Source: Calditrichaceae bacterium | GTDB lineage: Bacteria > Calditrichota > Calditrichia > Calditrichales > JBFXGD01 | Reading direction: 5' to 3' | Length of the DNA stretch: 64,000 nt | NCBI GenBank assembly: GCA_050178385.1 | Contig: JBFXGD010000002.1 | Span: 842-64,841, forward strand | Position numbers and translations under genes: made by a program | Shown here: positions 7,694-18,291 of the stretch, piece after piece | How positions within the stretch are numbered: the first letter of the stretch is position 1 | Layout of the letters: each line of letters opens with the position of its first letter | The notes under the pieces: generated by a model | Seen by the model: only the letters and a program-made list of their open reading frames with translations | The model's database searches: none | What the model was told of the DNA's origin: nothing

Positions 7694-7724
7694 AAAAAAA
7701 ATGGCAGGGGTCAATACCTGCCAT
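7694..7724 (-). terminator. Intrinsic terminator for the minus-strand redox/two-component block (may also stop dprA read-through)
   Basis: Perfect 8-bp stem ATGGCAGG/CCTGCCAT (7701-7708 and 7717-7724) with an 8-nt loop. On the minus strand the hairpin is followed by a T7 run (plus-strand A-run 7694-7700). Confidence 0.8.
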
Positions 7725-7760
7725 TCATGTCTTAATTAAGAAGAATATTCGAAATTTCTA

Positions 7761-8924
7761 TTAACGTTTGAAGAAATCGTTAACCACCGTTTCAAGTTCT
7801 TTATCTTTTAACCCTGAAAGCTCACCTAAATAAAGATGACCGTCAGCCGGAAATTTATCTTCATCTTTGGATGCTATCGCTACCTTTTTGATAAATTCCT
7901 GCACCCGCTTAATGTCAGTATGATAAAAACTTACCGCGCTTTCACCGATTTTTAAATCTTTGATCTCTAAATCAAGCTGTGATGATTCCAGTTTACAAAT
8001 CCAGTTTTTGTCATATGTGGTAGTATCAAGTCTGTCGAGATCATCAAGCAGCGCTTTGTTGATCTTCTCAACTTTACCCGATACAGGTGCGTTGAAAGGG
8101 ATTGAATGCGTACCCTGGCGGATACTGAAAAGATTTTGCCCTTTTTTGATTTCCATCCCCAGATTGGGAAGTTCGATGGAATCAATTTTACCGATTAATT
8201 TTTTTGCAAAATCGTCAATACCCACATTCACTTTTCCGTCCTGGTCAATTCCGGCCCAGCAGTGGCCCTCGGAAATGAAAACACCACCTGGGATGGAAAA
8301 TTCGACCGAGGCCGGAATCTGTGTGTCTGTCAGATGTGTAATATTAACCTGAGGAACAAGCTGCCGATGGATGCGCTCTTGTCTTGTGATCAGTGATTTT
8401 TTGATCATGGCGAGCAGTTCATCTTCAGTAAACGGCTTCTGAACATAATCCAACGCACCGAATTTCATAGTCTCAACAGCTGTTTCGACAGACGCGTAAC
8501 CGGTAATAACAATCACATCTATATCCGGCCGCAAATGTTTTACGCTTTTGCATACATCCACACCATCCATTTCGGGCATTTTTAAATCGACAAATACAAA
8601 ATCATAATGGTGTTTTTGTATTAATCCTAACGCCTCTTGTCCTGATTCAACGGTATCGACGCAATATCCGTCAAGGACAAGAATTTTTCTGAAGCTGTCA
8701 AGAATTACGGCTTCGTCGTCTACCGCAAGAATTTTAGCTTTAGGATTCTCAACTTCGACGCGTTTAAGGCTTTTAGCCTCATGAGTGAAATCCAGATTCA
8801 GGCTGACTTTAAGCGCTTCTTCGCGTTCACCTAAAATTCTTTTTGTGTTGATTTTTTTGATTATCATGCGAATGATGATATCTGCAATCACAAAAAGAAT
8901 GACTGCTAAAACTAAAAATAGCAT
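7761..8924 (-). CDS. Membrane-anchored response regulator: N-terminal TM helix + REC + GcvH-like domain lacking the lipoyl lysine
   Basis: Hydrophobic N-terminus MLFLVLAVILFVIADIIIRMII. REC motifs LAVDDE, FVFVDLKMPEMDG (Asp113), VITGY, QKPF. Residues ~215-325 align by eye to glycine-cleavage H protein (HCWAGID.DGKVNVGIDDFA..IGKIDSIELP..G......APVSGKV..IN..L). The position of the lipoyl-Lys (ESVKA in E. coli GcvH) reads QGTHS. I see no DNA-binding or AAA+ domain. Confidence 0.75.
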   Translation of the reverse strand: MLFLVLAVILFVIADIIIRMIIKKINTKRILGEREEALKVSLNLDFTHEAKSLKRVEVENPKAKILAVDDEAVILDSFRKILVLDGYCVDTVESGQEALGLIQKHHYDFVFVDLKMPEMDGVDVCKSVKHLRPDIDVIVITGYASVETAVETMKFGALDYVQKPFTEDELLAMIKKSLITRQERIHRQLVPQVNITHLTDTQIPASVEFSIPGGVFISEGHCWAGIDQDGKVNVGIDDFAKKLIGKIDSIELPNLGMEIKKGQNLFSIRQGTHSIPFNAPVSGKVEKINKALLDDLDRLDTTTYDKNWICKLESSQLDLEIKDLKIGESAVSFYHTDIKRVQEFIKKVAIASKDEDKFPADGHLYLGELSGLKDKELETVVNDFFKR

Positions 8925-8996: not shown

Positions 8997-9803
8997 CTAA
9001 ATTCTGTCTGAGCTGCAGGGTGTTAAATGCTTTAGTTCGTATTCAAGGTCAGAAGGAATGATACGATAAAACCACCCTTTGAAATAGGGATCCTTTTCTA
9101 TAATCTGTTTATCCTTCAGCAAATGATCATTTATTTCTATAATTCTTCCCGTCATCGGCGCAAGAATATTGTGAACAAGATTATCAGTAGTGACAAGTTG
9201 GGCACACGCGTTACCCTGGACAATCTCTTCATCCATATTTAAAAGTTCTATATGGTCAATGCTGTCAACCGTTCTCAAAAGCAAATCTGTGATGCCTGTT
9301 AATACAGAACCGTCATGTTCGATGTAAAGCCAGCTCCCATAACCTAGACGAAAATATTTTGCGGGGCAGGGGATATATATAATCGATGCATCATTTTTTA
9401 CTGAATTTACATGTTTTAAAGATTTATTTATTTCAGCATATTTTAAACCCCGAAAAACAGAACTCAGCAGTTCATCTACCGTAAATGGTTTTGGCAGAAA
9501 ATCTATCGCGCCTGTGTATAACGATTTTACCGCATTTTCAACCGTGGAATATCCGGTAGTCATTATAACCGGAGAATCCAGATTCTGAGGAATGATCTCA
9601 TCCAGAAACATAAAACCGTCCATCTCAGGGAGCATAATATCACATATGATCAGCCGGTATCTGTTTTTGGCGATTTTATTCAAACCTTCATTCGCGTCAA
9701 GCGAAGAATCAACACTAAAGCCTTCGTTGGTACAAAGTTTGATTACGGAATCAATGATCACCTGTTCATCATCAATAATAAGTATATCATATTCTTTGCT
9801 CAT
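8997..9803 (-). CDS. Response regulator: REC + GcvH-like domain lacking the lipoyl lysine
   Basis: REC motifs IIDDEQ, LIICDIMLPEMDG, MTTGY, LPKPF. The C-terminal ~115 aa is GcvH-like (WLYIEHDGSVLTGITDLL..VDSIDHIELL......LAPMTGRIIEIN..L......DPYFKGWFYRI). The Lys position reads TTDNL. No HTH recognisable. Confidence 0.75.
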   Translation of the reverse strand: MSKEYDILIIDDEQVIIDSVIKLCTNEGFSVDSSLDANEGLNKIAKNRYRLIICDIMLPEMDGFMFLDEIIPQNLDSPVIMTTGYSTVENAVKSLYTGAIDFLPKPFTVDELLSSVFRGLKYAEINKSLKHVNSVKNDASIIYIPCPAKYFRLGYGSWLYIEHDGSVLTGITDLLLRTVDSIDHIELLNMDEEIVQGNACAQLVTTDNLVHNILAPMTGRIIEINDHLLKDKQIIEKDPYFKGWFYRIIPSDLEYELKHLTPCSSDRI

Positions 9804-9817
9804 CGGGATTCCTGATT

Positions 9818-11689
9818 TTAACTTGCTGACCTGGTGGCCGGGATCCTCATCGTGAAGGTTGTCCCTTCGCCGATATTGCTGTCGACGGTTATGGTACCGT
9901 TATGATTGTCAATAATACCCCAGATGATCGCCAGGCCAAGCCCCGTGCCTCGCTGGCCTTTTGTTGAATAAAATGGTTCAAATATGCGATAGAGATTCTC
10001 TTTTGGAATGCCGCATCCCGAGTCCGAAATTTTAATCTCTATAAATTCCCTTTTACCTTCCAGTTCAATCATCTTCCAGTTCTGCCATCCGCAATCCCTG
10101 TTTGTACAGCCGACAAACTCACCCTGTGTTGGAATTTCAAATGAATACACGGAAGATGCGCATTTTGGGCATTTGTTGTTTTTTTCTATTAGCGAAATAT
10201 CGCAATGGGGGCACAACAACTGTAGCGACTTATTTTTACTATATTCGATACCAAAGTAATGCCTTGATTTCCCGTAGATCGGGTCGAGATTAACAAAACC
10301 GGAGCTGCCGTTTGAAAGCGCCTTTAGTTTAATCGAAGGTAAACCGTCGATTTTAATTTCATTGTCGATAAGACTGTGTCCTTTTGGACAAGCGGCTCTT
10401 TTAATCTGCATATAGCCTTTTGGTGGAACAAAAAGTAAAGATGTTGACACATTTATGTTTCCACCGTTTTTCCCGATTGCATCATTCGCGTTAACCACCA
10501 GGTTGATAAAAACCTGTTCTATCTGGTTGGCGTCAATGGTTACTTTTGGCAGCTGTATATCAAGGTTTTTAATAATTTTTACATTGTTGATGGTCAATTG
10601 ATTCTCTACCACACCAATCGCGTGGTTAAGAATATCATTGATGTTCGAATTATTTTTTTTCGGAACTGATTGTCTGGCAAAATCCAGCAGTCCTTTTACA
10701 ATTTCCCTGCTTCTTTTTGTTTCTCTGACAATTACTTCTAAATCCGATTGCAATTCCGAATTGCCCTTGGTCCTCTTTAGTAAAAAACTGCTGTATGTTA
10801 AAATCCCGGTCAGCGGGTTGTTAATCTCGTGCGCGACGCCGGCCGCGAGACGGCCAAGTGAGGCCAGTTTATCTGATTGAAATAACTGCATTCTGGCTTC
10901 GGATAATTTTTGCGTCATGTTGTTAAATGAACGGGCAAGCATTCCCAATTCATCATTGCTGTGTTCCTTAATCGTGTAGTTCAGATTTCCGGCGGCGACA
11001 TTCTTCGTAGCCTGTAGCAGAGTGTTCACCGGTTTGTCAACCAAACTTTTCACGAAGTACCAAACGGTGCCGCTCAGGAGAATGATGGCAATGATGGCAA
11101 ACATGAGCATTTTGAATTTTGTTGACGCAATCTGATTGTCAATTGCCTTGATGGAAATAGTGACATCGAGGACGCCAAGAACGGTTTTTTCAGATGCGTG
11201 TGCATGACAATCGGCTTCCCAGCAGGAAGGTTCATTATAAATCGGATTAATTATACCTAACACCCTGGAAGAATCAGGTGCTAATTTATAGACACGCGTG
11301 CGCTTTTCAATCTCAAGTTTTTCCAGGGGTTTATTAGCCGCGTGACAAGCGTAACATGCTTCGGTCTTTTTGTCAACCATATGTCCGATTGCAGTAGTAT
11401 CAGAAGAATAGATGATCTCTCCTTCTTTATTAAAAACCCGGACTTCGTTAATGCAGGGTTGATTCCCGATTGTCTGAATAATGTTATGGATATGCGCGCG
11501 TTCATTAAGAAGCATTCCGTATCTGGTGCTATTCTTAACCGTTTCGCTTAGTTGGTTGACATGTCTCTCCACCTCATCAAAAAGAGCCTTACTCTGAGAT
11601 TGTACGTTCAGATAGGCAAATACGAATATGATGATGATGGTTGCCGTTCCTACGGCGGAGATTAATTTAAATCCAATTTTCTTGAACAT
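9818..11689 (-). CDS. Sensor histidine kinase: two TM helices, periplasmic domain with c-haem-type motifs, HAMP, DHp, and a HATPase domain split by a Cys-rich insertion
   Basis: TM1 at ~res 9-28 and TM2 at ~193-213. Between them lie CYACH (res 112-116) and CWEADCH (156-162). HAMP-like 214-265. H-box AGVAHEINNPL. N-box NLVVNANDA. Then a ~128-aa insertion (res ~418-545) containing CPKGH, CPHC..x10..CPKC and C-x4-C. This is followed by G1 DSGCGIP, the F-box FEPFYSTK and G2 GTGLGLA. Confidence 0.85.
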   Translation of the reverse strand: MFKKIGFKLISAVGTATIIIIFVFAYLNVQSQSKALFDEVERHVNQLSETVKNSTRYGMLLNERAHIHNIIQTIGNQPCINEVRVFNKEGEIIYSSDTTAIGHMVDKKTEACYACHAANKPLEKLEIEKRTRVYKLAPDSSRVLGIINPIYNEPSCWEADCHAHASEKTVLGVLDVTISIKAIDNQIASTKFKMLMFAIIAIILLSGTVWYFVKSLVDKPVNTLLQATKNVAAGNLNYTIKEHSNDELGMLARSFNNMTQKLSEARMQLFQSDKLASLGRLAAGVAHEINNPLTGILTYSSFLLKRTKGNSELQSDLEVIVRETKRSREIVKGLLDFARQSVPKKNNSNINDILNHAIGVVENQLTINNVKIIKNLDIQLPKVTIDANQIEQVFINLVVNANDAIGKNGGNINVSTSLLFVPPKGYMQIKRAACPKGHSLIDNEIKIDGLPSIKLKALSNGSSGFVNLDPIYGKSRHYFGIEYSKNKSLQLLCPHCDISLIEKNNKCPKCASSVYSFEIPTQGEFVGCTNRDCGWQNWKMIELEGKREFIEIKISDSGCGIPKENLYRIFEPFYSTKGQRGTGLGLAIIWGIIDNHNGTITVDSNIGEGTTFTMRIPATRSAS

Positions 11690-11845: not shown

Positions 11846-13009
11846 TTAAAGTTTTGTTTTTGTTAAGCTGCCTGGCATTGCAGCCGGGTATTTATAATTA
11901 TCATGGCAATTGTCACATGTCGGTTTTTTGTTAAAATTGAGATCAATATGGCATGATTCACAATCCATTGCACTATGGTTTTCATCAAGGACTAATCCGG
12001 TTACGCGATGTTTGAATGACTCGGGATTCCAGTTTTTGTGACAGCTGGTGCATGTTGGATTCAGACTTGAAAAGATTTTATTCTCGCCATGACAAGTCTG
12101 ACATCTAAGGGATGCGTGGTAACTTTTGAGCGGCCATTTTGCGGTAACAGAATGGTCGAACGGTCCCTTTTGCTTGTTGCTGTGACACTTAGTACAATTA
12201 TCATCAGCATGGCAGGAGAAGCAGGTTTCATGTTTTTCATCAACTGATTTACTTGCAGCTACAGGTTTTGCCGTGGCTACCTGTTCCTTATAAGTTGATT
12301 TTGAAAGGTCGTGACAACGACTACAGCTCTCGTTGGTATGACAATCAACGCATTTAAATCCAAACTTTCCTGAATGTTCATTATGATAGAAAGTCACATA
12401 TTTGCCCTCTTTGGCCGCGGTTTCGTAAACCACTTTATCCGGTTCTGTAATCTTTGGGTGTTTTGAGCCAATAATGTCACTTTGATCAGAAATCTTTTTC
12501 TCGGGAGAGGCGGCACCTTTTAAAACATGGCATACATTGCAGTCAGTTGTATGACTCCATTCGCGGTGACAGCTTAAACACTGCCGGTGATAGGCGCCTT
12601 TTAGGCCCGGTTTGCTGAGATCAGCTCTTATGGGTTCTGTCTCATGACATTCCTTACACGCGGCAATCTTACCGGGAGGGTTATGATGATGACATGATGT
12701 ACAGCTTCCGGACATTTGTCCCATTTCAGCATGAAGCCTGTGCGGGAAAACCGTCGGTTCGTATATGTTTGATAAAATATCGATATTCAAAGTATCGGGT
12801 CCCTCATCAGGAGTATGGTGAATGGTTACCACATTCCGTTTAAATTCAGGGCAGCATGTAAGACACGGGTCCGCTTCCGTCGGATTGTCGCAGCTGTGAC
12901 AGGATTTGCAATCCAGAGCAAGTTTTGAATGATGTTCAGTACTGACTGTCTGTGCAAACAGCGGGGTGATGATGAGTAAAAAGCCAATAATCAGATTTAA
13001 TTTTTTCAT
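11846..13009 (-). CDS. Periplasmic multihaem c-type cytochrome (13 CXXCH motifs, cytochrome c3-family-like)
   Basis: Signal peptide MKKLNLIIGFLLIITPLFAQ. There are 13 CXXCH motifs: CKSCH, CTSCH, CKECH, CLSCH, CNVCH, CVDCH, CSRCH, CFSCH, CTKCH, CQTCH, CTSCH, CESCH, CDNCH. No CXXCK motif is present. The ATG overlaps the upstream gene's stop (ATGA at 13006-13009). Confidence 0.9.
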   Translation of the reverse strand: MKKLNLIIGFLLIITPLFAQTVSTEHHSKLALDCKSCHSCDNPTEADPCLTCCPEFKRNVVTIHHTPDEGPDTLNIDILSNIYEPTVFPHRLHAEMGQMSGSCTSCHHHNPPGKIAACKECHETEPIRADLSKPGLKGAYHRQCLSCHREWSHTTDCNVCHVLKGAASPEKKISDQSDIIGSKHPKITEPDKVVYETAAKEGKYVTFYHNEHSGKFGFKCVDCHTNESCSRCHDLSKSTYKEQVATAKPVAASKSVDEKHETCFSCHADDNCTKCHSNKQKGPFDHSVTAKWPLKSYHASLRCQTCHGENKIFSSLNPTCTSCHKNWNPESFKHRVTGLVLDENHSAMDCESCHIDLNFNKKPTCDNCHDNYKYPAAMPGSLTKTKL

Positions 13010-14250
13010 TTTGCAGCCCCTCGAATAGCGAATTTTGTTTTTGGCCTATATCCTTTAACCGGTTGGCTTATAACAGGGAATATCAAAACGAGGGTGCGGT
13101 ACAACAATACTTCAAGAGCGATAAAGCCTACCGTGACGGAAATTTCTCCGATTGACGGGAAATATGAATTCATTGCATAAGGTGGTGTGTAGGCAACGAT
13201 AAAGGTATTGATTCTGTTTATCAGTACTCCGAATATCACCAAAAGAGAAGCAGTGAATAACCAGGATGGGGATTTCAGAGCTTTATTCGAGAGGAAAATC
13301 CTTAGAGGGATAATCACGCCGAACAGCATTTCAATGATAAACATTATGCTTTCGATATTGAAATCGAGTAAATAAACATAGGTTCCCCGAATAACCATAT
13401 CGCCTATTTTAAATGCAAGGTAAATTCCCAACAACGGGCCGATTATACGTCCCAAATTGGAGAGTACATGCATTTCTCTTTTTAGTCCAAAGGACTTTGA
13501 CGCGATCATAGATTCAAGAACGACCATCGGAAATCCAACAGAGATCGCGGAGAGTAAAAACAGAAGTGGCGCGATAGGAGTCTGCCAGAGCGGGTGAATC
13601 TTAGAACCTGCTAAGATCATAAGTGTTCCAAGGGATGACTGATGCAGACAGGATAACACAACACCGGCAATCAAAAAGATGAACATGGCCGGATTCAGAA
13701 TTTTGTCAAGAAATTTTAGCAGTGATTCCAGGGGTTTTACAAGACCTGCCAGAAATCCGTTTAAATGCACCTGACCTTTAAACCGCTCAATGACAACAGG
13801 GATAAATTCAATGTACAAAACAGTGAGATATGTCATCACGCATATACCGACTTCGAACAACGCTGAATTTCCGTTCCACATATACATGACATGATAAATA
13901 GAATAATAACGTCCGAGATCAATAAAGACTCCCAGGGCGACAAATGTATATCCTAACATGGCTGTGAGCAGAGCAGGACGTACAATAACGTGATAGTCTC
14001 CTCTATGGAAAACATGTCCGAGCGCGGCAGTTGTAAATCCTCCCGCGGCAAGGGCTACTCCCGCAGCCACATCAATGCCGATCCAAATACCCCATGGATG
14101 CTGATTGTCAAGGTTAGTTACTGCTCCAAGTCCGAATACAAATCTCAATAAAGCGAATATCAAGCCGTTTACAGCTAGTATCGTCAAGAAAATTACACCG
14201 GGTGTAAAAAATTTTTTTTCAATACGAGCAGGTTTAATCATTTCGTCCAT
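13006..14250 (-). CDS. NrfD/PsrC/HmcC-like integral membrane quinone-interacting subunit
   Basis: 414 aa and almost entirely hydrophobic, with about 10 predicted helices. Its N-terminus and overall layout resemble the polysulfide reductase NrfD family. It is flanked by an FeS subunit and a cytochrome, as in Hmc/Nhc/Qrc-type complexes. Confidence 0.8.
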   Translation of the reverse strand: MDEMIKPARIEKKFFTPGVIFLTILAVNGLIFALLRFVFGLGAVTNLDNQHPWGIWIGIDVAAGVALAAGGFTTAALGHVFHRGDYHVIVRPALLTAMLGYTFVALGVFIDLGRYYSIYHVMYMWNGNSALFEVGICVMTYLTVLYIEFIPVVIERFKGQVHLNGFLAGLVKPLESLLKFLDKILNPAMFIFLIAGVVLSCLHQSSLGTLMILAGSKIHPLWQTPIAPLLFLLSAISVGFPMVVLESMIASKSFGLKREMHVLSNLGRIIGPLLGIYLAFKIGDMVIRGTYVYLLDFNIESIMFIIEMLFGVIIPLRIFLSNKALKSPSWLFTASLLVIFGVLINRINTFIVAYTPPYAMNSYFPSIGEISVTVGFIALEVLLYRTLVLIFPVISQPVKGYRPKTKFAIRGAAK

Positions 14251-14259
14251 TATCGCCTC

Positions 14260-15153
14260 CTACTCAACTTCTTCTTTGTTCTTGTTGATCCACATGATAC
14301 CGCCAAGCAGCGCATAAAGAGATACCGGTGGGATAAAATATTTAAATATTGCGTGCTGAATGGCTTCCGATACGCCGGGCGCCGGGTTATCAGCTAATTT
14401 TGGGAAATCCAGATCAGCGAAATCTGTCGATGAAAGATACAGCCATGATGTACCGCCGACTTCTTTCTCACCGTAAATATGGTCAAAATATTTTTCGGGA
14501 TTCTTTTTGATTCTTTCACGGGCGATTTTTAACAGATCGGAGCGTTTTCCATAGGTCAGAGCTTCCACAGGGCACATTTCTACGCATGCCGGAAGCAGAC
14601 CTTCTTTTGTTCTTTCAAAACAAAAATCACATTTTTGGACCTGTGGCGTAAGAGCATTTTTGTATTCATAGGAAGGGATCTGAAAAGGACAGGCGACCAT
14701 GCAGTACCGGCAGCCGATACACTTATTGACATCATATATCACCGATCCGTTCTCTTCTTTAGAAAGTGCGCCTACAATACATGCGGAAACGCAAGCCGGG
14801 TGATCGCAGTGCATGCACTGGACCTTGACGTTTATGGGGTATTTACCTCCATTGTTGTTGTCATATTCATTAACAACGGTGTGACCATCAAAATCCGGCC
14901 TTCTTAATTTTTCAAACACAGACCGGTCATCATATGATTCAATCGATCCGGTAGGGAAATCATGTGCCTTTTTACAGGCATACTCACATTTTCGGCAGCC
15001 AATGCAAACGGTCGTGTCAACAAGCACGCCCATCCGATCTTCCATCAATACATTTTTGGGGGCAGCCTTTGCCTGCTTGGCTCCCACACCGGTTAGACCG
15101 GCACCGACCAATCCGGCGGTTTTGAAAAAATCGCGTCGGCTCTGTTTACCCAT
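14260..15153 (-). CDS. TAT-exported 4x[4Fe-4S] ferredoxin subunit (NrfC/HybA/HmcB-like) with a C-terminal TM anchor
   Basis: Twin-arginine signal SRRDFFKTAGLVGAGL. Four Cys clusters: CIGCRKCEYAC, CMHCDHPACVSAC, CIGCRYCMVACP, CDFC..x13..CVEMCP. Hydrophobic C-terminal helix YFIPPVSLYALLGGIMWI. Confidence 0.88.
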   Translation of the reverse strand: MGKQSRRDFFKTAGLVGAGLTGVGAKQAKAAPKNVLMEDRMGVLVDTTVCIGCRKCEYACKKAHDFPTGSIESYDDRSVFEKLRRPDFDGHTVVNEYDNNNGGKYPINVKVQCMHCDHPACVSACIVGALSKEENGSVIYDVNKCIGCRYCMVACPFQIPSYEYKNALTPQVQKCDFCFERTKEGLLPACVEMCPVEALTYGKRSDLLKIARERIKKNPEKYFDHIYGEKEVGGTSWLYLSSTDFADLDFPKLADNPAPGVSEAIQHAIFKYFIPPVSLYALLGGIMWINKNKEEVE

Positions 15154-15267
15154 TTTCGACTCCTTGTATTCGATTTCAAAATAATAATTTCACAAAATCA
15201 GCACGACAGATAAACTAATCGCACAAATATTTAATACCAATAGAACCATTCGTTACAGTTGGTGATA

Positions 15268-15281
15268 GCAAAATTTGTGCC
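15268..15281 (-). promoter_or_regulatory. Candidate sigma-54 (-24/-12) promoter for the nrfC-like operon
   Basis: The minus strand reads aaaGGCACaaattTTGCta, which is GG-N10-GC with exact spacing and a good -12 TTGCT. It lies ~115 nt upstream of the ATG at 15153 and is followed by an AAGGAG RBS. Confidence 0.5.
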
Positions 15282-15376
15282 TTTCTTTCGGAGAACGCGT
15301 TTTTAGATGATTTAATCTGTTAAATCTATGACAACGCTGCTTCCTCGCAATGGGTGGAATTTTACTTTCTCAGGTT

Positions 15377-15401
15377 GGATTAATAATTTTCGGATTAATA
15401 A
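15377..15401. repeat. Direct repeat GGATTAATAA x2 (15-bp period) upstream of the sigma-54-like promoter
   Basis: GGATTAATAA occurs at 15377-15386 and again at 15392-15401. Confidence 0.6.
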
Positions 15402-15404
15402 ACA

Positions 15405-15454
15405 AAGTGTTTCAAAAAGTGTTTCATACGGGATAATTAAAATAGTATGTTTCA
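15405..15454. promoter_or_regulatory. Three copies of a GTTTCA-containing motif; candidate upstream activator sites
   Basis: AAGTGTTTCA at 15405-15414 and 15417-15426 is a perfect 10-nt direct repeat with a 12-bp period. A third copy, TATGTTTCA, is at 15446-15454. The motifs are 125-175 bp upstream of the -24 element on the minus strand. Confidence 0.4.
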
Positions 15455-15918
15455 AAACCTGTTAAACAATGTTAACCTGATAAAAATAAATGAATTATCA
15501 TTCAGTTGTGGAACATTTTGTTCCTGTTTTTTTTGATTTCACGCCCTGATTCTCGGGATAAATACTTTCAAAAATCAATTTTTATTAGAAACGAAGGATT
15601 ATTTTTTCTGAATGTTTACCGCTTTCGCATGTTGACCGAAGCCTGGATTAAATATAAATATTGAAAATATTTGTACCAAATAAAATAATTTAAAATACAT
15701 TTTTCCAATTTTTAATAAAAATACTCCTTTTAAACCCGCAGAAGCGCTTCGCAAAATCCGATGCAAATAATATTAAATAATGGAATTTCAGTCATTTAAC
15801 CGTATATGTTCAAGTATCCTATTAAACTGGATTTAATGAAATAAAATTAATTGAATGAATGGTATAATATTTGTAACTTTAATATTTAATAACATTGCAA
15901 GCGGAGGACTATTAAATA

Positions 15919-16797
15919 ATGTACAAAATTGTTGAAGCAGGCTTTCTTGCGGAAAATATTAAACGTTTTGTGATTGAAGCGCCGAGAATTGCCAGCAAAC
16001 GAAAAGCGGGTCAATTTGTTATTATACGAATTGATGAGCATGGCGAAAGAATCCCTTTGACCATCGCGGATTCCGACAAAGAAAAGGGAACGATTACGAT
16101 TATTGTCCAGGGGATTGGAAAAACCACAAGCGCTCTGAATCTGAAAGAAGCGGGAGATCAGATTCTGGATGTTGTCGGACCGTTGGGGCACGAGTCTGAA
16201 ATCGAAAAATTTGGTACTGTCGTAAGTATTGGCGGCGGAGTGGGAACGGCAATTGCTTTTCCGACAGCGGTTGCTCTAAAAGATGCCGGAAATTATGTGA
16301 TCACAATTAACGGCGCCAGAAGCAAGGATATGGTTATCCTGGAAGATGAACTAAGGTCAGTAAGCGATGAGGCATACGTGACTACTGATGACGGATCTTA
16401 CGGATTCCACGGTTTTGTAACCCAGAAACTGCAGGAACTGCTCGATGCCGGCAAAAAAATTGATTTTGTTCTGGCCATTGGTCCGATCCCGATGATGAAA
16501 GCGGTAGCCGAAGTGACACGGCCGTATAAAATAAAAACAATTGTCAGTCTGAACCCCATTATGGTTGACGGTACAGGAATGTGCGGTGGATGCCGGGTTG
16601 TTGTGGGTAATGAATCTAAATTTGCCTGTGTTGATGGTCCGGAATTTGACGCGCATCTTGTCGACTTCAAAAATCTTTCCGACCGGAACAAGATGTATTC
16701 CAAACACGAGAAACTATCACTGGAAAAATTCAAACACGAATGCAATCTGGATAAACAGGCTAAAGCGCACAAGGAGCTCGAACAAGTTGAGAGCTGA
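15919..16797 (+). CDS. nfnA: NADH-dependent reduced ferredoxin:NADP+ oxidoreductase subunit A (NfnA / SudB-like FAD + 2Fe-2S subunit)
   Basis: MYKIVEAGFLAENIKRFVIEAPRIASKRKAGQFVIIRIDEHGERIPLTIADSD..GTITIIVQGIGKTT is typical of NfnA/SudB. C-terminal CGGCRV...C cluster motif. Confidence 0.85.
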   Translation: MYKIVEAGFLAENIKRFVIEAPRIASKRKAGQFVIIRIDEHGERIPLTIADSDKEKGTITIIVQGIGKTTSALNLKEAGDQILDVVGPLGHESEIEKFGTVVSIGGGVGTAIAFPTAVALKDAGNYVITINGARSKDMVILEDELRSVSDEAYVTTDDGSYGFHGFVTQKLQELLDAGKKIDFVLAIGPIPMMKAVAEVTRPYKIKTIVSLNPIMVDGTGMCGGCRVVVGNESKFACVDGPEFDAHLVDFKNLSDRNKMYSKHEKLSLEKFKHECNLDKQAKAHKELEQVES

Positions 16798-16863
16798 TTT
16801 TTAAATTATTTAGAAATTTAATATTTAGAAGAAATAAATTTAAATAAAAAAAATGGTGAACGA

Positions 16864-18291
16864 ATGCAAAAGTTGACAGCAAAAGAACGCATGAAAATAG
16901 CCCGGCATCCTATGGTTGAACAGGATCATCTGGAACGGGGACATAATTTCAAAGAGGTAAACCTCGGATATACCACTCAGATGGCACAGGAAGAGGCGTT
17001 AAGATGTTTACAATGCGCGAAGCCGACATGTGTACAGGGGTGTCCGGTTAATATACAAATTAAGGATTTTGTTACTCTGATCGCGGAAGGTGATTTTATT
17101 GGTGCCGTGCACAAAATTAAAGAAGACAACGCTCTCCCCGCGATTTGCGGACGTGTTTGTCCTCAGGAAGAGCAGTGTGAGCAGGTTTGTGTCGTGGCGA
17201 AGAGAGGCGAACCTGTTGCCATTGGAAATCTGGAACGGTTTGTGGCTGATTATGAAAGAACAAGCGGGAAAGTCGAACTGCCGAAAGTGGGAGCTCCAAC
17301 TGGGAAAAAAGTTGCTATAGTTGGCAGCGGTCCGGCCGGATTGAGCTGCGCTAAAGATATGATTCAGATGGGACATAAAGTGACCGTATTCGAAGCGCTC
17401 CATGAGTTGGGCGGGGTGCTGGTCTATGGAATTCCGGAATTTCGTCTGCCGAAAGATATCGTGCGGCAGGAAATCGAAGGTCTACAAAAAATGGGCGTTG
17501 AGTTTGTTACCGATGCCGTAATCGGAAGGACAACCACTATCGATGAACTCATGGAAGAAGAAGGGTATGACTCCGTGTTTGTTGGCGTGGGCGCCGGACT
17601 GCCATGGTTTCTTGGAATTCCTGGTGAAAATCTGATCGGAGTTTATTCGGCAAATGAATTTCTTACCCGTGTTAATTTGATGAAGGCGTACGATTTTCCA
17701 AATTTCGATTCGCCTGTTTTGGATTGCAAAGATAAGAATATTGCTGTTTTCGGTGGTGGCAACACCGCGATGGACTCAGTACGCACCGCGCTCAGGTTAG
17801 GAGCGAAAAACGCTTATATTGTATATCGCCGTTCTGACAAGGAAATGCCGGCACGCGCTGAGGAAGTAAAACATGCCAAGGAAGAGGGAATCCAGTTTCT
17901 GATGCTGACGAGTCCGCTTGAATTTGTCGGGGACGAAAGCGGCTGGCTGAATTCCATGAGATGCATCAAAATGGAACTTGGTGAACCTGATGCATCGGGC
18001 CGGCGGCGTCCGGTACCCATTGAAGATTCAGAGTTCGTTATGGAAATTGATTTGGCAATTATCGCTATCGGAAATGGATCAAATCCCCTTATCAAACAAA
18101 CTTCACCCGAAATAGAATTCACAAAACGCGGCACGATCGCCGTTGATAGTGAGACAATGAAAACATCCAAAAAAGGCGTGTTCGCCGGCGGGGATATCGT
18201 AACCGGCGGGGCAACAGTCATTCTGGCGATGGGGGCCGGCAGAAAAGCCGCGGCCGCCATGAATGATTTTATGAATAACGGCGATTGGTAA
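16864..18291 (+). CDS. nfnB: NfnB / glutamate synthase small-chain-like (GltD/SudA family) FAD/NAD(P) oxidoreductase
   Basis: N-terminal FeS motifs CLQCAKPTCVQGCP and CGRVCPQEEQCEQVC. Dinucleotide folds VAIVGSGPAGLSCA and VFGGGNTAMD. C-terminal GVFAGGDIVTGGATVI. Confidence 0.88.
   Translation: MQKLTAKERMKIARHPMVEQDHLERGHNFKEVNLGYTTQMAQEEALRCLQCAKPTCVQGCPVNIQIKDFVTLIAEGDFIGAVHKIKEDNALPAICGRVCPQEEQCEQVCVVAKRGEPVAIGNLERFVADYERTSGKVELPKVGAPTGKKVAIVGSGPAGLSCAKDMIQMGHKVTVFEALHELGGVLVYGIPEFRLPKDIVRQEIEGLQKMGVEFVTDAVIGRTTTIDELMEEEGYDSVFVGVGAGLPWFLGIPGENLIGVYSANEFLTRVNLMKAYDFPNFDSPVLDCKDKNIAVFGGGNTAMDSVRTALRLGAKNAYIVYRRSDKEMPARAEEVKHAKEEGIQFLMLTSPLEFVGDESGWLNSMRCIKMELGEPDASGRRRPVPIEDSEFVMEIDLAIIAIGNGSNPLIKQTSPEIEFTKRGTIAVDSETMKTSKKGVFAGGDIVTGGATVILAMGAGRKAAAAMNDFMNNGDW

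Follow-up and report, generated by a model that had tools for sequence, protein, structure and literature searches.

Haem c sensors of the Cache type and the kinase of this study

Sensors that carry a c-type haem in a Cache or PAS-like domain are, to our knowledge, the only known means by which bacteria read redox state or gases directly in the periplasm, and all those studied so far are single-haem forms. Here we analyse a sensor histidine kinase of 623 amino acids, identified by open reading frame (ORF) translation and Pfam domain matches, which is encoded on the minus strand (9818..11689) of a 64,000-nucleotide stretch of DNA from a Calditrichaceae bacterium (contig JBFXGD010000002.1, positions 842 to 64,841), hereafter called the window. 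The periplasmic domain of this kinase is a distant homologue of the haem c sensors of Geobacter and, as judged from its sequence and a structure model, appears to be a two-haem variant of them. Our favoured reading, to which we assign a probability of roughly 0.6, is that the loop between the two transmembrane helices of the kinase forms an sCache domain with two covalent c haems, of which haem 2 has a methionine switch, and that it senses the redox state of a chain comprising a cytochrome, an iron-sulfur (FeS) protein and an NrfD-family membrane protein.

The closest described systems are GSU0582 and GSU0935 (PDB 3B47 and 3B42; Pfam PF21563). In these proteins, as in the arrangement predicted for the kinase, a periplasmic sCache fold lies between two transmembrane helices, the haem site is in a short helix before the last beta strand, and a distal methionine is located on the N-terminal helix. 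The methionine is switched on and off in a redox-linked manner, being bound to the reduced haem and freed on oxidation, with midpoint potentials (Em) of −156 and −251 mV; in addition, CO and NO are bound reversibly by replacement of Met60 (PMC8396549). The kinase differs from GSU0582 and GSU0935 in having two attachment motifs rather than one, and in that the homologous site is CX4CH instead of CXXCH, while its other motif, CYACH, sits on an extra insert of about 20 amino acids. It also has a conserved histidine at +2 from the proximal histidine, where neither Geobacter protein has one (...CHDAG in GSU0935, ...CHEQG in GSU0582), and its output is a histidine kinase, whereas theirs is a methyl-accepting chemotaxis protein (MCP).

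The sCache_heme domains (DUF3365/Tll0287, PF11845; Deshpande et al. 2026, PMC12889525) are likewise extracytoplasmic Cache domains with a covalent c haem on an inserted helix. They are often fused to kinases, MCPs or GGDEF/EAL modules, and those joined to signalling modules show the behaviour of NO sensors (PMC12889525). Unlike the domain described here, they have a single CXXCH, which is at least 99% conserved, and two-haem or CX4CH forms are not mentioned in the preprint (PMC12889525). DcrA of Desulfovibrio vulgaris, too, is a transmembrane signal transducer whose periplasmic domain carries a c-type haem, and it has been proposed to sense redox potential or oxygen (PMC8396549); however, it has one haem and an MCP output and belongs to a different sequence family.

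Signal transducers with extra motifs have been recorded as well. GSU0591 and GSU0599 of G. sulfurreducens and Adeh_2011 and Adeh_3383 of Anaeromyxobacter have two haem motifs; they are described as homologous to the GSU0582/GSU0935 sensors but with one haem-binding motif more, and the signature given is CX2-4CH (PMC3831638, PMC8396549). These proteins are likened to the kinase, in their extra motif and CX2-4CH form, by description and not by sequence. Among the named matches of a profile search made with distant members of the kinase family, none came from Geobacter or Anaeromyxobacter by source name. What is already known therefore comprises single-haem c-type sensors with Cache or PAS-like domains (GSU0582/GSU0935, DcrA, Tll0287/sCache_heme) and the extra-motif sensors of genome surveys. 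What appears new, from the sequences compared below, is a large putative two-haem branch lying below Pfam thresholds, its conserved respiratory-module context and, in the present lineage, GcvH-like outputs that seem not to bind DNA.

A periplasmic domain with two haem c motifs

The domain order of the kinase is a first transmembrane helix (TM1), the putative two-haem sCache sensor, a second transmembrane helix (TM2), HAMP, HisKA and a HATPase_c domain split by a Cys-rich insert. All features of the kinase and its gene cluster given below lie on the minus strand. By hydropathy scan and translation, TM1 covers residues 9-27 (11609..11665) and TM2 residues 195-213 (11051..11107). The Pfam matches are HAMP at residues 219-263, HisKA at 278-339 and HATPase_c at 542-619, and the phospho-acceptor is His287 (10829..10831) in the HEINNP motif of HisKA, as assigned from Pfam, alignment and translation. 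Because three lysines, K3, K4 and K8, are N-terminal to TM1 and HAMP follows TM2, the loop of about 165 amino acids between the two helices is predicted to face the periplasm, the compartment in which c-type haem is attached.

Two candidate haem sites are found in this loop. Site 1, CYACH (residues 112-116; 11342..11356), was identified by translation and conservation and is located in an insert between strands beta2 and beta3. Site 2, identified by translation and by alignment to 3B42, is CWEADCH (residues 156-162; 11204-11224), which together with His164 gives CWEADCHAH (11198..11224). A preliminary description of the window, made by eye, had reported CYACH and CWEADCH between the two transmembrane helices; both are indeed there, and the interval 11204-11356 is their exact span from first to last. 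Within the window, CXXCH occurs only in the kinase and in a neighbouring 13-haem cytochrome among ORFs of at least 100 amino acids. When the loop's own residues were shuffled, both motifs arose jointly in 1.6e-4 of trials.

Conservation of the motifs was assessed in several samples of relatives. A first homologue search, with residues 1-227 as the query, listed 120 matches with 39-66% identity, nearly all of which have CXXCH followed some 43 residues on by CX4CH. In a 70-sequence alignment, C112, C115, H116, C156, C161 and H162 are each 99-100% conserved, and M59, H164, E110 and R132 are invariant. Loss of both motifs in close orthologues, which the preliminary description had named as one outcome that would overturn a haem sensor, was thus not seen. 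The sensor domain by itself was also searched exhaustively with phmmer against 1.84 billion cluster representatives; 1176 clusters passed a limit of E <= 1e-3 and 613 a limit of E <= 1e-10. Among the 150 matches listed were 141 new representatives of 50%-identity clusters: 123 of these carry CXXCH plus CX4CH, five CXXCH plus CX3CH and three CXXCH plus CXXCH, leaving ten, mostly truncated or visibly frameshifted, with a single motif or none. A second search, using the most distant members as a profile, extended the range of phyla and found the pair in 94 of 104 sequences; CX3CH or CXXCH variants were seen in 6 of the 104. Taken together, more than 350 relatives were covered, with identities reaching down to about 34%, and about 90% of them retain the motif pair. 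Given its conservation in these last two samples (123/141 and 94/104), we reject the idea that the motifs are a chance or lineage-specific feature.

Most of the motif exceptions are truncated or frameshifted sequences. On long contigs of one ENA project (loci L084-L087, homologues P0008 and P0088, and others), two ORFs take the place of the kinase gene, one of about 200-250 amino acids with the sensor and a second with HAMP, HisKA and HATPase. These splits are probably frameshift errors of long-read assemblies, which would account for the many short database homologues with a 'hypothetical' annotation; fragments and long-read frameshifts would in turn explain most of the apparent motif losses. 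Rare site-2 variants were also observed in four homologues (P0195, P0207, P0135 and P0377). These include CX5CH (CYTSKECH, CWGASGCH) and SYTSNCH, which is without the first cysteine, and in one of the four the entire site-2 segment is deleted and the CXXCH insert alone is left.

The alignments were also used to look for further ligands of haem iron. In a 248-sequence alignment, the only other conserved candidates are M59 (100%) and H164 (94%), with the conservation of H164 ranging from 94 to 100% across alignments. Two proximal histidines and two candidate distal ligands would fit two six-coordinate haems. Met59 (11513..11515) is the candidate distal, switching ligand of the site-2 haem, on the basis of its invariance and its alignment to Met60 of GSU0935.

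This alignment comes from a profile of the family, which was compared with all PDB sequences and returned 3B42, the structure of the G. sulfurreducens sensor GSU0935, as the top match (E = 4e-4). CWEADCH aligns to CQ--SCH of 3B42, with a two-residue insertion in the kinase, and M59 aligns to chain residue 26 of 3B42. The chain is offset by 34 from the residue numbering of PMC8396549 (chain His110 is His144), and H162 therefore corresponds to the proximal His144 of GSU0935 and M59 to Met60, the redox-switched distal ligand of that protein (PMC8396549). The region of CYACH is longer in the kinase, at about 31 residues compared with about 14 in 3B42 in the profile alignment. In Pfam, PF21563 ('Mcp40H-20_sensor') is the best family for 23 of 25 members; the present kinase scores 18.8 bits when taken whole and 23.2 bits when its sensor domain is taken by itself, against a cut-off of 27 bits. 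PF11845 (DUF3365/Tll0287) gave no significant match, being hit by 3 of 25 members with a best E of 0.13. The comparison with haem-sensor families suggested in the preliminary description was thus negative for DUF3365/Tll0287, while a haem sensor of the GSU0935 type was found by profile.

An AlphaFold2 model with a mean predicted local distance difference test (pLDDT) score of 85.6 has an sCache fold, in which a long helix is followed by a five-stranded sheet. The helix is unbroken from TM1 to residue 60, CWEADCH is placed on a short helix preceding the last strand, and CYACH is placed in the beta2-beta3 connector. Together with Foldseek and the sub-threshold match to PF21563, the model delimits the sCache-type sensor domain to residues 28-191 (11117..11608). 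Foldseek matched the model to the Cache domains of WalK, KinD, DctB, DcuS and CitA and to 3B42, all with a probability of 1.0. The match to 3B42 has a high root-mean-square deviation, probably because of the swapped-dimer crystal form. The profile match and the sCache fold show distant homology to the Geobacter haem PAS-like sensors, and the earlier statement that the domain bears no obvious resemblance to them was wrong.

The domain has the extracytoplasmic position, the single Cache fold, the haem motif before the last strand and the methionine on the N-terminal helix of a GSU0582/GSU0935-type sensor. It stays below the curated Pfam threshold, and it does not have the one strictly conserved CXXCH per domain of that type; CXXCH is on a separate insert, and most members have CX4CH at the canonical position, where a few have CXXCH or CX3CH instead. 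The near-invariance of the motifs, the CX2-4CH variation, the alignment to the haem site of GSU0935 and the invariant distal methionine nevertheless lend support to the proposal of the preliminary description that the periplasmic loop is a c-type haem sensor domain.

The Cys-rich insert lies in the other half of the protein. It consists of about 100 amino acids (residues 434-533; 10091..10390) and separates the N box of the ATPase domain from its G1 box. Its pattern is CPKGH ... CPHC-x10-CPKC ... C, and C434, H438, C493, C496, C507, C510 and C528 are each at least 91% conserved among 69 orthologues. The insert has a weak match to the DZR zinc-ribbon family of Pfam and resembles a cytoplasmic metal site, either a zinc ribbon or one of another kind. 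Distant members of the family probably do not have it, since at about 505-560 amino acids they are too short for an insert of such size.

The gene cluster and its distribution

The kinase is part of a run of six contiguous minus-strand genes, extending from 15153 down to 7761 and encoding, in order, a 4Fe-4S protein, an NrfD protein, a 13-haem cytochrome, the kinase and two response regulators (RR1 and RR2). The cytochrome directly upstream of the kinase, also noted in the preliminary description, is a periplasmic cytochrome c with 13 CXXCH motifs in c3/c7-type repeats (11846..13009; Pfam Cytochrom_CIII and Cytochrome_C7). The NrfD-family integral membrane subunit is HybB/HmcC-like (13006..14250; Pfam NrfD), and the first gene encodes a Tat-exported 4Fe-4S protein that is HmcB/HybA-like (14260..15153; Pfam Fer4_11 and TAT_signal). 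The NCBIfam equivalog cut-offs are missed in each case (scores in bits, cut-offs in brackets): HybB 360.8 (450) and HmcC 262 (550) for the membrane subunit, HmcB 338 (420) and HybA 257.7 (263) for the 4Fe-4S protein, and HmcA 46 (400). Membership of the Hmc or hydrogenase-2 type of module holds at the domain level alone (Fer4_11, NrfD, Cytochrom_CIII). The Hmc, Nhc and Tmc modules and the HybA/HybB modules similarly combine a Tat-exported 4Fe-4S protein, an NrfD-family membrane protein and a c3-type multihaem cytochrome. In contrast to Hmc, Nhc and Tmc, the cytochrome here has 13 haems rather than 16, 9 or 4. In contrast to the Hmc and Hyb modules, there are no HmcD/E/F-like or hydrogenase genes between the FeS gene and the kinase, and the module is followed by a kinase and two regulators that join a receiver (REC) to a GcvH-like domain.

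RR1 (8997..9803; Pfam Response_reg and GCV_H) consists of a receiver and a GcvH-like domain, and RR2 (7761..8924; Pfam) has the same two domains preceded by an N-terminal hydrophobic helix (N-terminus MLFLVLAVILFVIADIIIRMII). Both receivers are normal and have the acceptor Asp. The lipoyl-lysine of the E-S-V-K hairpin is absent, being replaced by Asn in RR1 and by Thr in RR2, and the position is variable among the roughly 70 orthologues of each regulator; the output domains thus do not carry the lipoyl-lysine by which a glycine cleavage H protein is recognised. The arrangement may have a parallel in hmc-rrf1-rrf2 of Desulfovibrio, although literature searches on REC-GcvH regulators and on Rrf1 of the hmc operon returned nothing usable.

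Directly past the last gene is a terminator-like hairpin with a 10-bp stem and then a T run (7699..7726, minus strand), which is the probable end of the six-gene unit. A scan for sigma-70 promoters performed no better than shuffles, with 28 sites against 23.3 expected. At the other end, within 15154-18291, an intergenic gap of 765 bp separates the FeS gene from a divergent gene pair, the first member of which is Cys-rich and ferredoxin-reductase-like and the second GltD-like. The pair resembles NfnAB or SudAB, and no such pair stands beside the operon in 80 related loci. No Trp-rich CcsA/CcmC/CcmF motif was found within the 64-kb window (1-64000), and the maturation genes for the cytochrome and the sensor are therefore expected elsewhere in the genome. 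A ResB/CcsA gene is present near the cluster in one distant locus, L083.

A scan of one genome per species found relatives of the sensor domain in at least 581 genomes, and synteny was read in the best 80 of these matches. The order FeS, NrfD-like, 13-haem cytochrome, kinase, response regulator, response regulator is kept in essentially all 80 loci, as far as the contig extends. These loci are mostly from Ignavibacteria, Melioribacter and Calditrichia, and they include metagenome-assembled genomes (MAGs) of Melioribacter roseus and Ignavibacterium album and the genome of Rosettibacter primus. The family as a whole is spread over Ignavibacteria, Melioribacter, Calditrichia, Acidobacteriota, Methylomirabilales, Syntrophales and others, with source names that read only 'HAMP domain-containing' or 'sensor kinase'.

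Seven distant loci from other phyla (L081-L087; about 40-48% identity) were also sampled. In six of the seven, the kinase adjoins an FeS/NrfD module, usually with a cytochrome c, and the gene orders differ. L082 contains the kinase, two REC-GcvH regulators, a c3/c7-like cytochrome, FeS and NrfD, while L083, whose protein is from a Polarisedimenticolia MAG according to NCBI, contains a c7 cytochrome, FeS, NrfD and the kinase. A sigma-54 regulator accompanies the kinase in the others: in L084 after a monohaem cytochrome c, FeS, NrfD and the kinase; in L085 with the kinase beside an opposite-strand cluster of FeS, NrfD and a GCV_H protein; in L086 fused to the kinase, after NiFe hydrogenase, a GCV_H protein, FeS and NrfD; and in L087 with the kinase, divergent from a c3-like cytochrome, a molybdopterin oxidoreductase, FeS and NrfD. 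The GCV_H-family proteins beside the FeS/NrfD genes of L085 (10556-11380) and L086 (4499-4795) are stand-alone. A Peptidase_M54 (archaemetzincin-like) gene or domain was observed beside the kinase and sigma-54 pair in 4 of 4 such loci (L084 10019-10540, L085 8630-9181, L086 9909-10490 and L087 7587-9191).

The sigma-54-linked loci have a suggestive parallel in Geobacter. BccR (GSU0598) is a sigma-54 regulator that induces the quinol oxidoreductase CbcBA as the potential falls, and the BccR paper names no sensor. By locus number, BccR is adjoined by GSU0599, one of the signal transducers with two haem motifs.

The linkage persists although gene order, cytochrome and regulator differ between loci, which speaks for the sensor being functionally tied to periplasmic, quinone-linked electron-transfer modules. 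The preliminary description had suggested that the sensor reads the redox poise of an electron pool shared with the cytochrome. The link to the cytochrome is backed by the synteny of the 80 loci and the recurrence of FeS, NrfD and cytochrome genes, while the choice of redox over NO or CO as the signal derives from this context.

Proposed mechanism and alternatives

Established directly are the two motifs and how well they are conserved, the homology and fold of the domain, and the synteny of the cluster. From these we infer that haem is bound, which residues ligate it, where its electrons come from, which way the switch works and what the output is, as follows. Haem 2 would be attached at CWEADCH with His162 as the proximal ligand, and would correspond to the one haem that GSU0582 and GSU0935 each carry. 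Met59, at the point where the long helix continuing TM1 ends, probably supplies the sixth ligand of haem 2. Haem 1 would be attached at CYACH on the inserted segment, with His116 as the proximal ligand. This haem is probably bis-His, with His164 as the second ligand, and may be a low-spin haem for electron entry or relay. Electrons would pass between the sensor and the cytochrome pool of the periplasm, with the 13-haem cytochrome of the cluster as the most direct partner, and, as in the Geobacter sensors, the redox change at haem 2 would bind or free Met59. Because Met59 is at the end of a helix continuous with TM1, this ligand exchange could be passed directly to TM1 and HAMP. The exchange would shift the TM1-linked helix and act through HAMP and HisKA on kinase activity, and the phosphoryl group would pass to the two receiver-GcvH-like regulators. 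The signal would be the reduction level of the FeS/NrfD/cytochrome chain.

A number of points weigh against this redox reading. The evidence for haem is entirely from sequences and models. The Pfam scores of the sensor domain are below the gathering threshold (18.8-23.2 versus 27 bits), and AlphaFold2 confidence is low around CYACH (pLDDT 56-70), as is expected since the model is apo. Neither RR1 nor RR2 has a DNA-binding domain. In the remaining distant locus, L081, the kinase is found with a sigma-54 regulator and there is no FeS/NrfD module within reach. Finally, the NO sensors among the related sCache_heme domains and the binding of NO and CO by GSU0582 and GSU0935 make a gas signal possible.

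This last point leads to the best placed of the alternatives, which we nevertheless consider unlikely. Here the haem c domain would sense a diatomic gas (NO, CO or possibly O2) by displacement of the methionine, and the respiratory module would be a regulated or co-regulated target. The NO-sensor properties of sCache_heme domains fused to signalling modules (PMC12889525) fit such a role, as does the replacement of Met60 by CO and NO in GSU0582 and GSU0935 (PMC8396549), given that the equivalent methionine is invariant in the present family. However, a second haem that is probably six-coordinate would be more usual for electron transfer than for gas binding, the modules with which the kinase stays linked are electron-transfer modules of the cytochrome/FeS/NrfD type, and no NO-metabolism gene families are among the genes listed in the clusters.

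Less probable again is that the kinase sensor docks to the membrane complex as a subunit or co-sensor and reads contact with the cytochrome or the NrfD complex (its occupancy or assembly), the haems being mainly structural. The linkage of kinase and module is tight and widespread enough to suit this explanation, and the GcvH-like proteins beside the FeS/NrfD genes of L085 and L086 hint at physical coupling; however, the partner cytochrome varies by locus (13-haem, c7-like or monohaem), and both the conserved switching methionine and the homology to sensors with a demonstrated redox-linked ligand switch speak for an active role of the haems.

Haem c attachment is known at CX2-4CH motifs. We reject as very improbable that the four cysteines and three histidines of the periplasmic loop hold no haem and instead form two disulfides or chelate a metal (Zn, Cu or Fe), sensing thiol redox or metals, because site 2 varies strictly within CX2-4CH with the histidine always abutting the second cysteine, as expected of a haem c site and not of a zinc or disulfide site, and aligns to an experimentally solved haem site, in an organism that makes c-type cytochromes (13 CXXCH in the neighbouring gene).

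Returning to the redox sensor, we speculate that its output may act on the complex by protein-protein interaction and not at the level of transcription, since the GcvH-like domains of the regulators are without the lipoyl-lysine, RR2 has a hydrophobic helix, and GCV_H proteins stand beside FeS/NrfD genes in L085 and L086. A fuller version of this idea is doubtful at present. In this version, the sensor would be wired by direct electron transfer to the FeS/NrfD/cytochrome module and would control that module post-translationally, through phosphorylation-dependent binding of the GcvH-like domains, with one regulator membrane-anchored. This would constitute a redox feedback loop, and the same sensor would be reused with sigma-54 regulators elsewhere, maybe including BccR and CbcBA.

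The putative two-haem group is a large unannotated sister group of the known sensors, made up of 1176 clusters (50% identity) and represented in the genomes of at least 581 species. It offers a concrete candidate for sensing of the periplasmic electron pool in anaerobes with branched chains, including metal reducers, and suggests a candidate for the sensor upstream of regulators such as BccR of Geobacter. The hypothesis is testable because cultured hosts with the operon exist, namely Melioribacter roseus, Ignavibacterium album and Rosettibacter primus. If direct wiring and a GcvH-like output are both true, the cluster would form a self-contained redox feedback loop on a respiratory complex.

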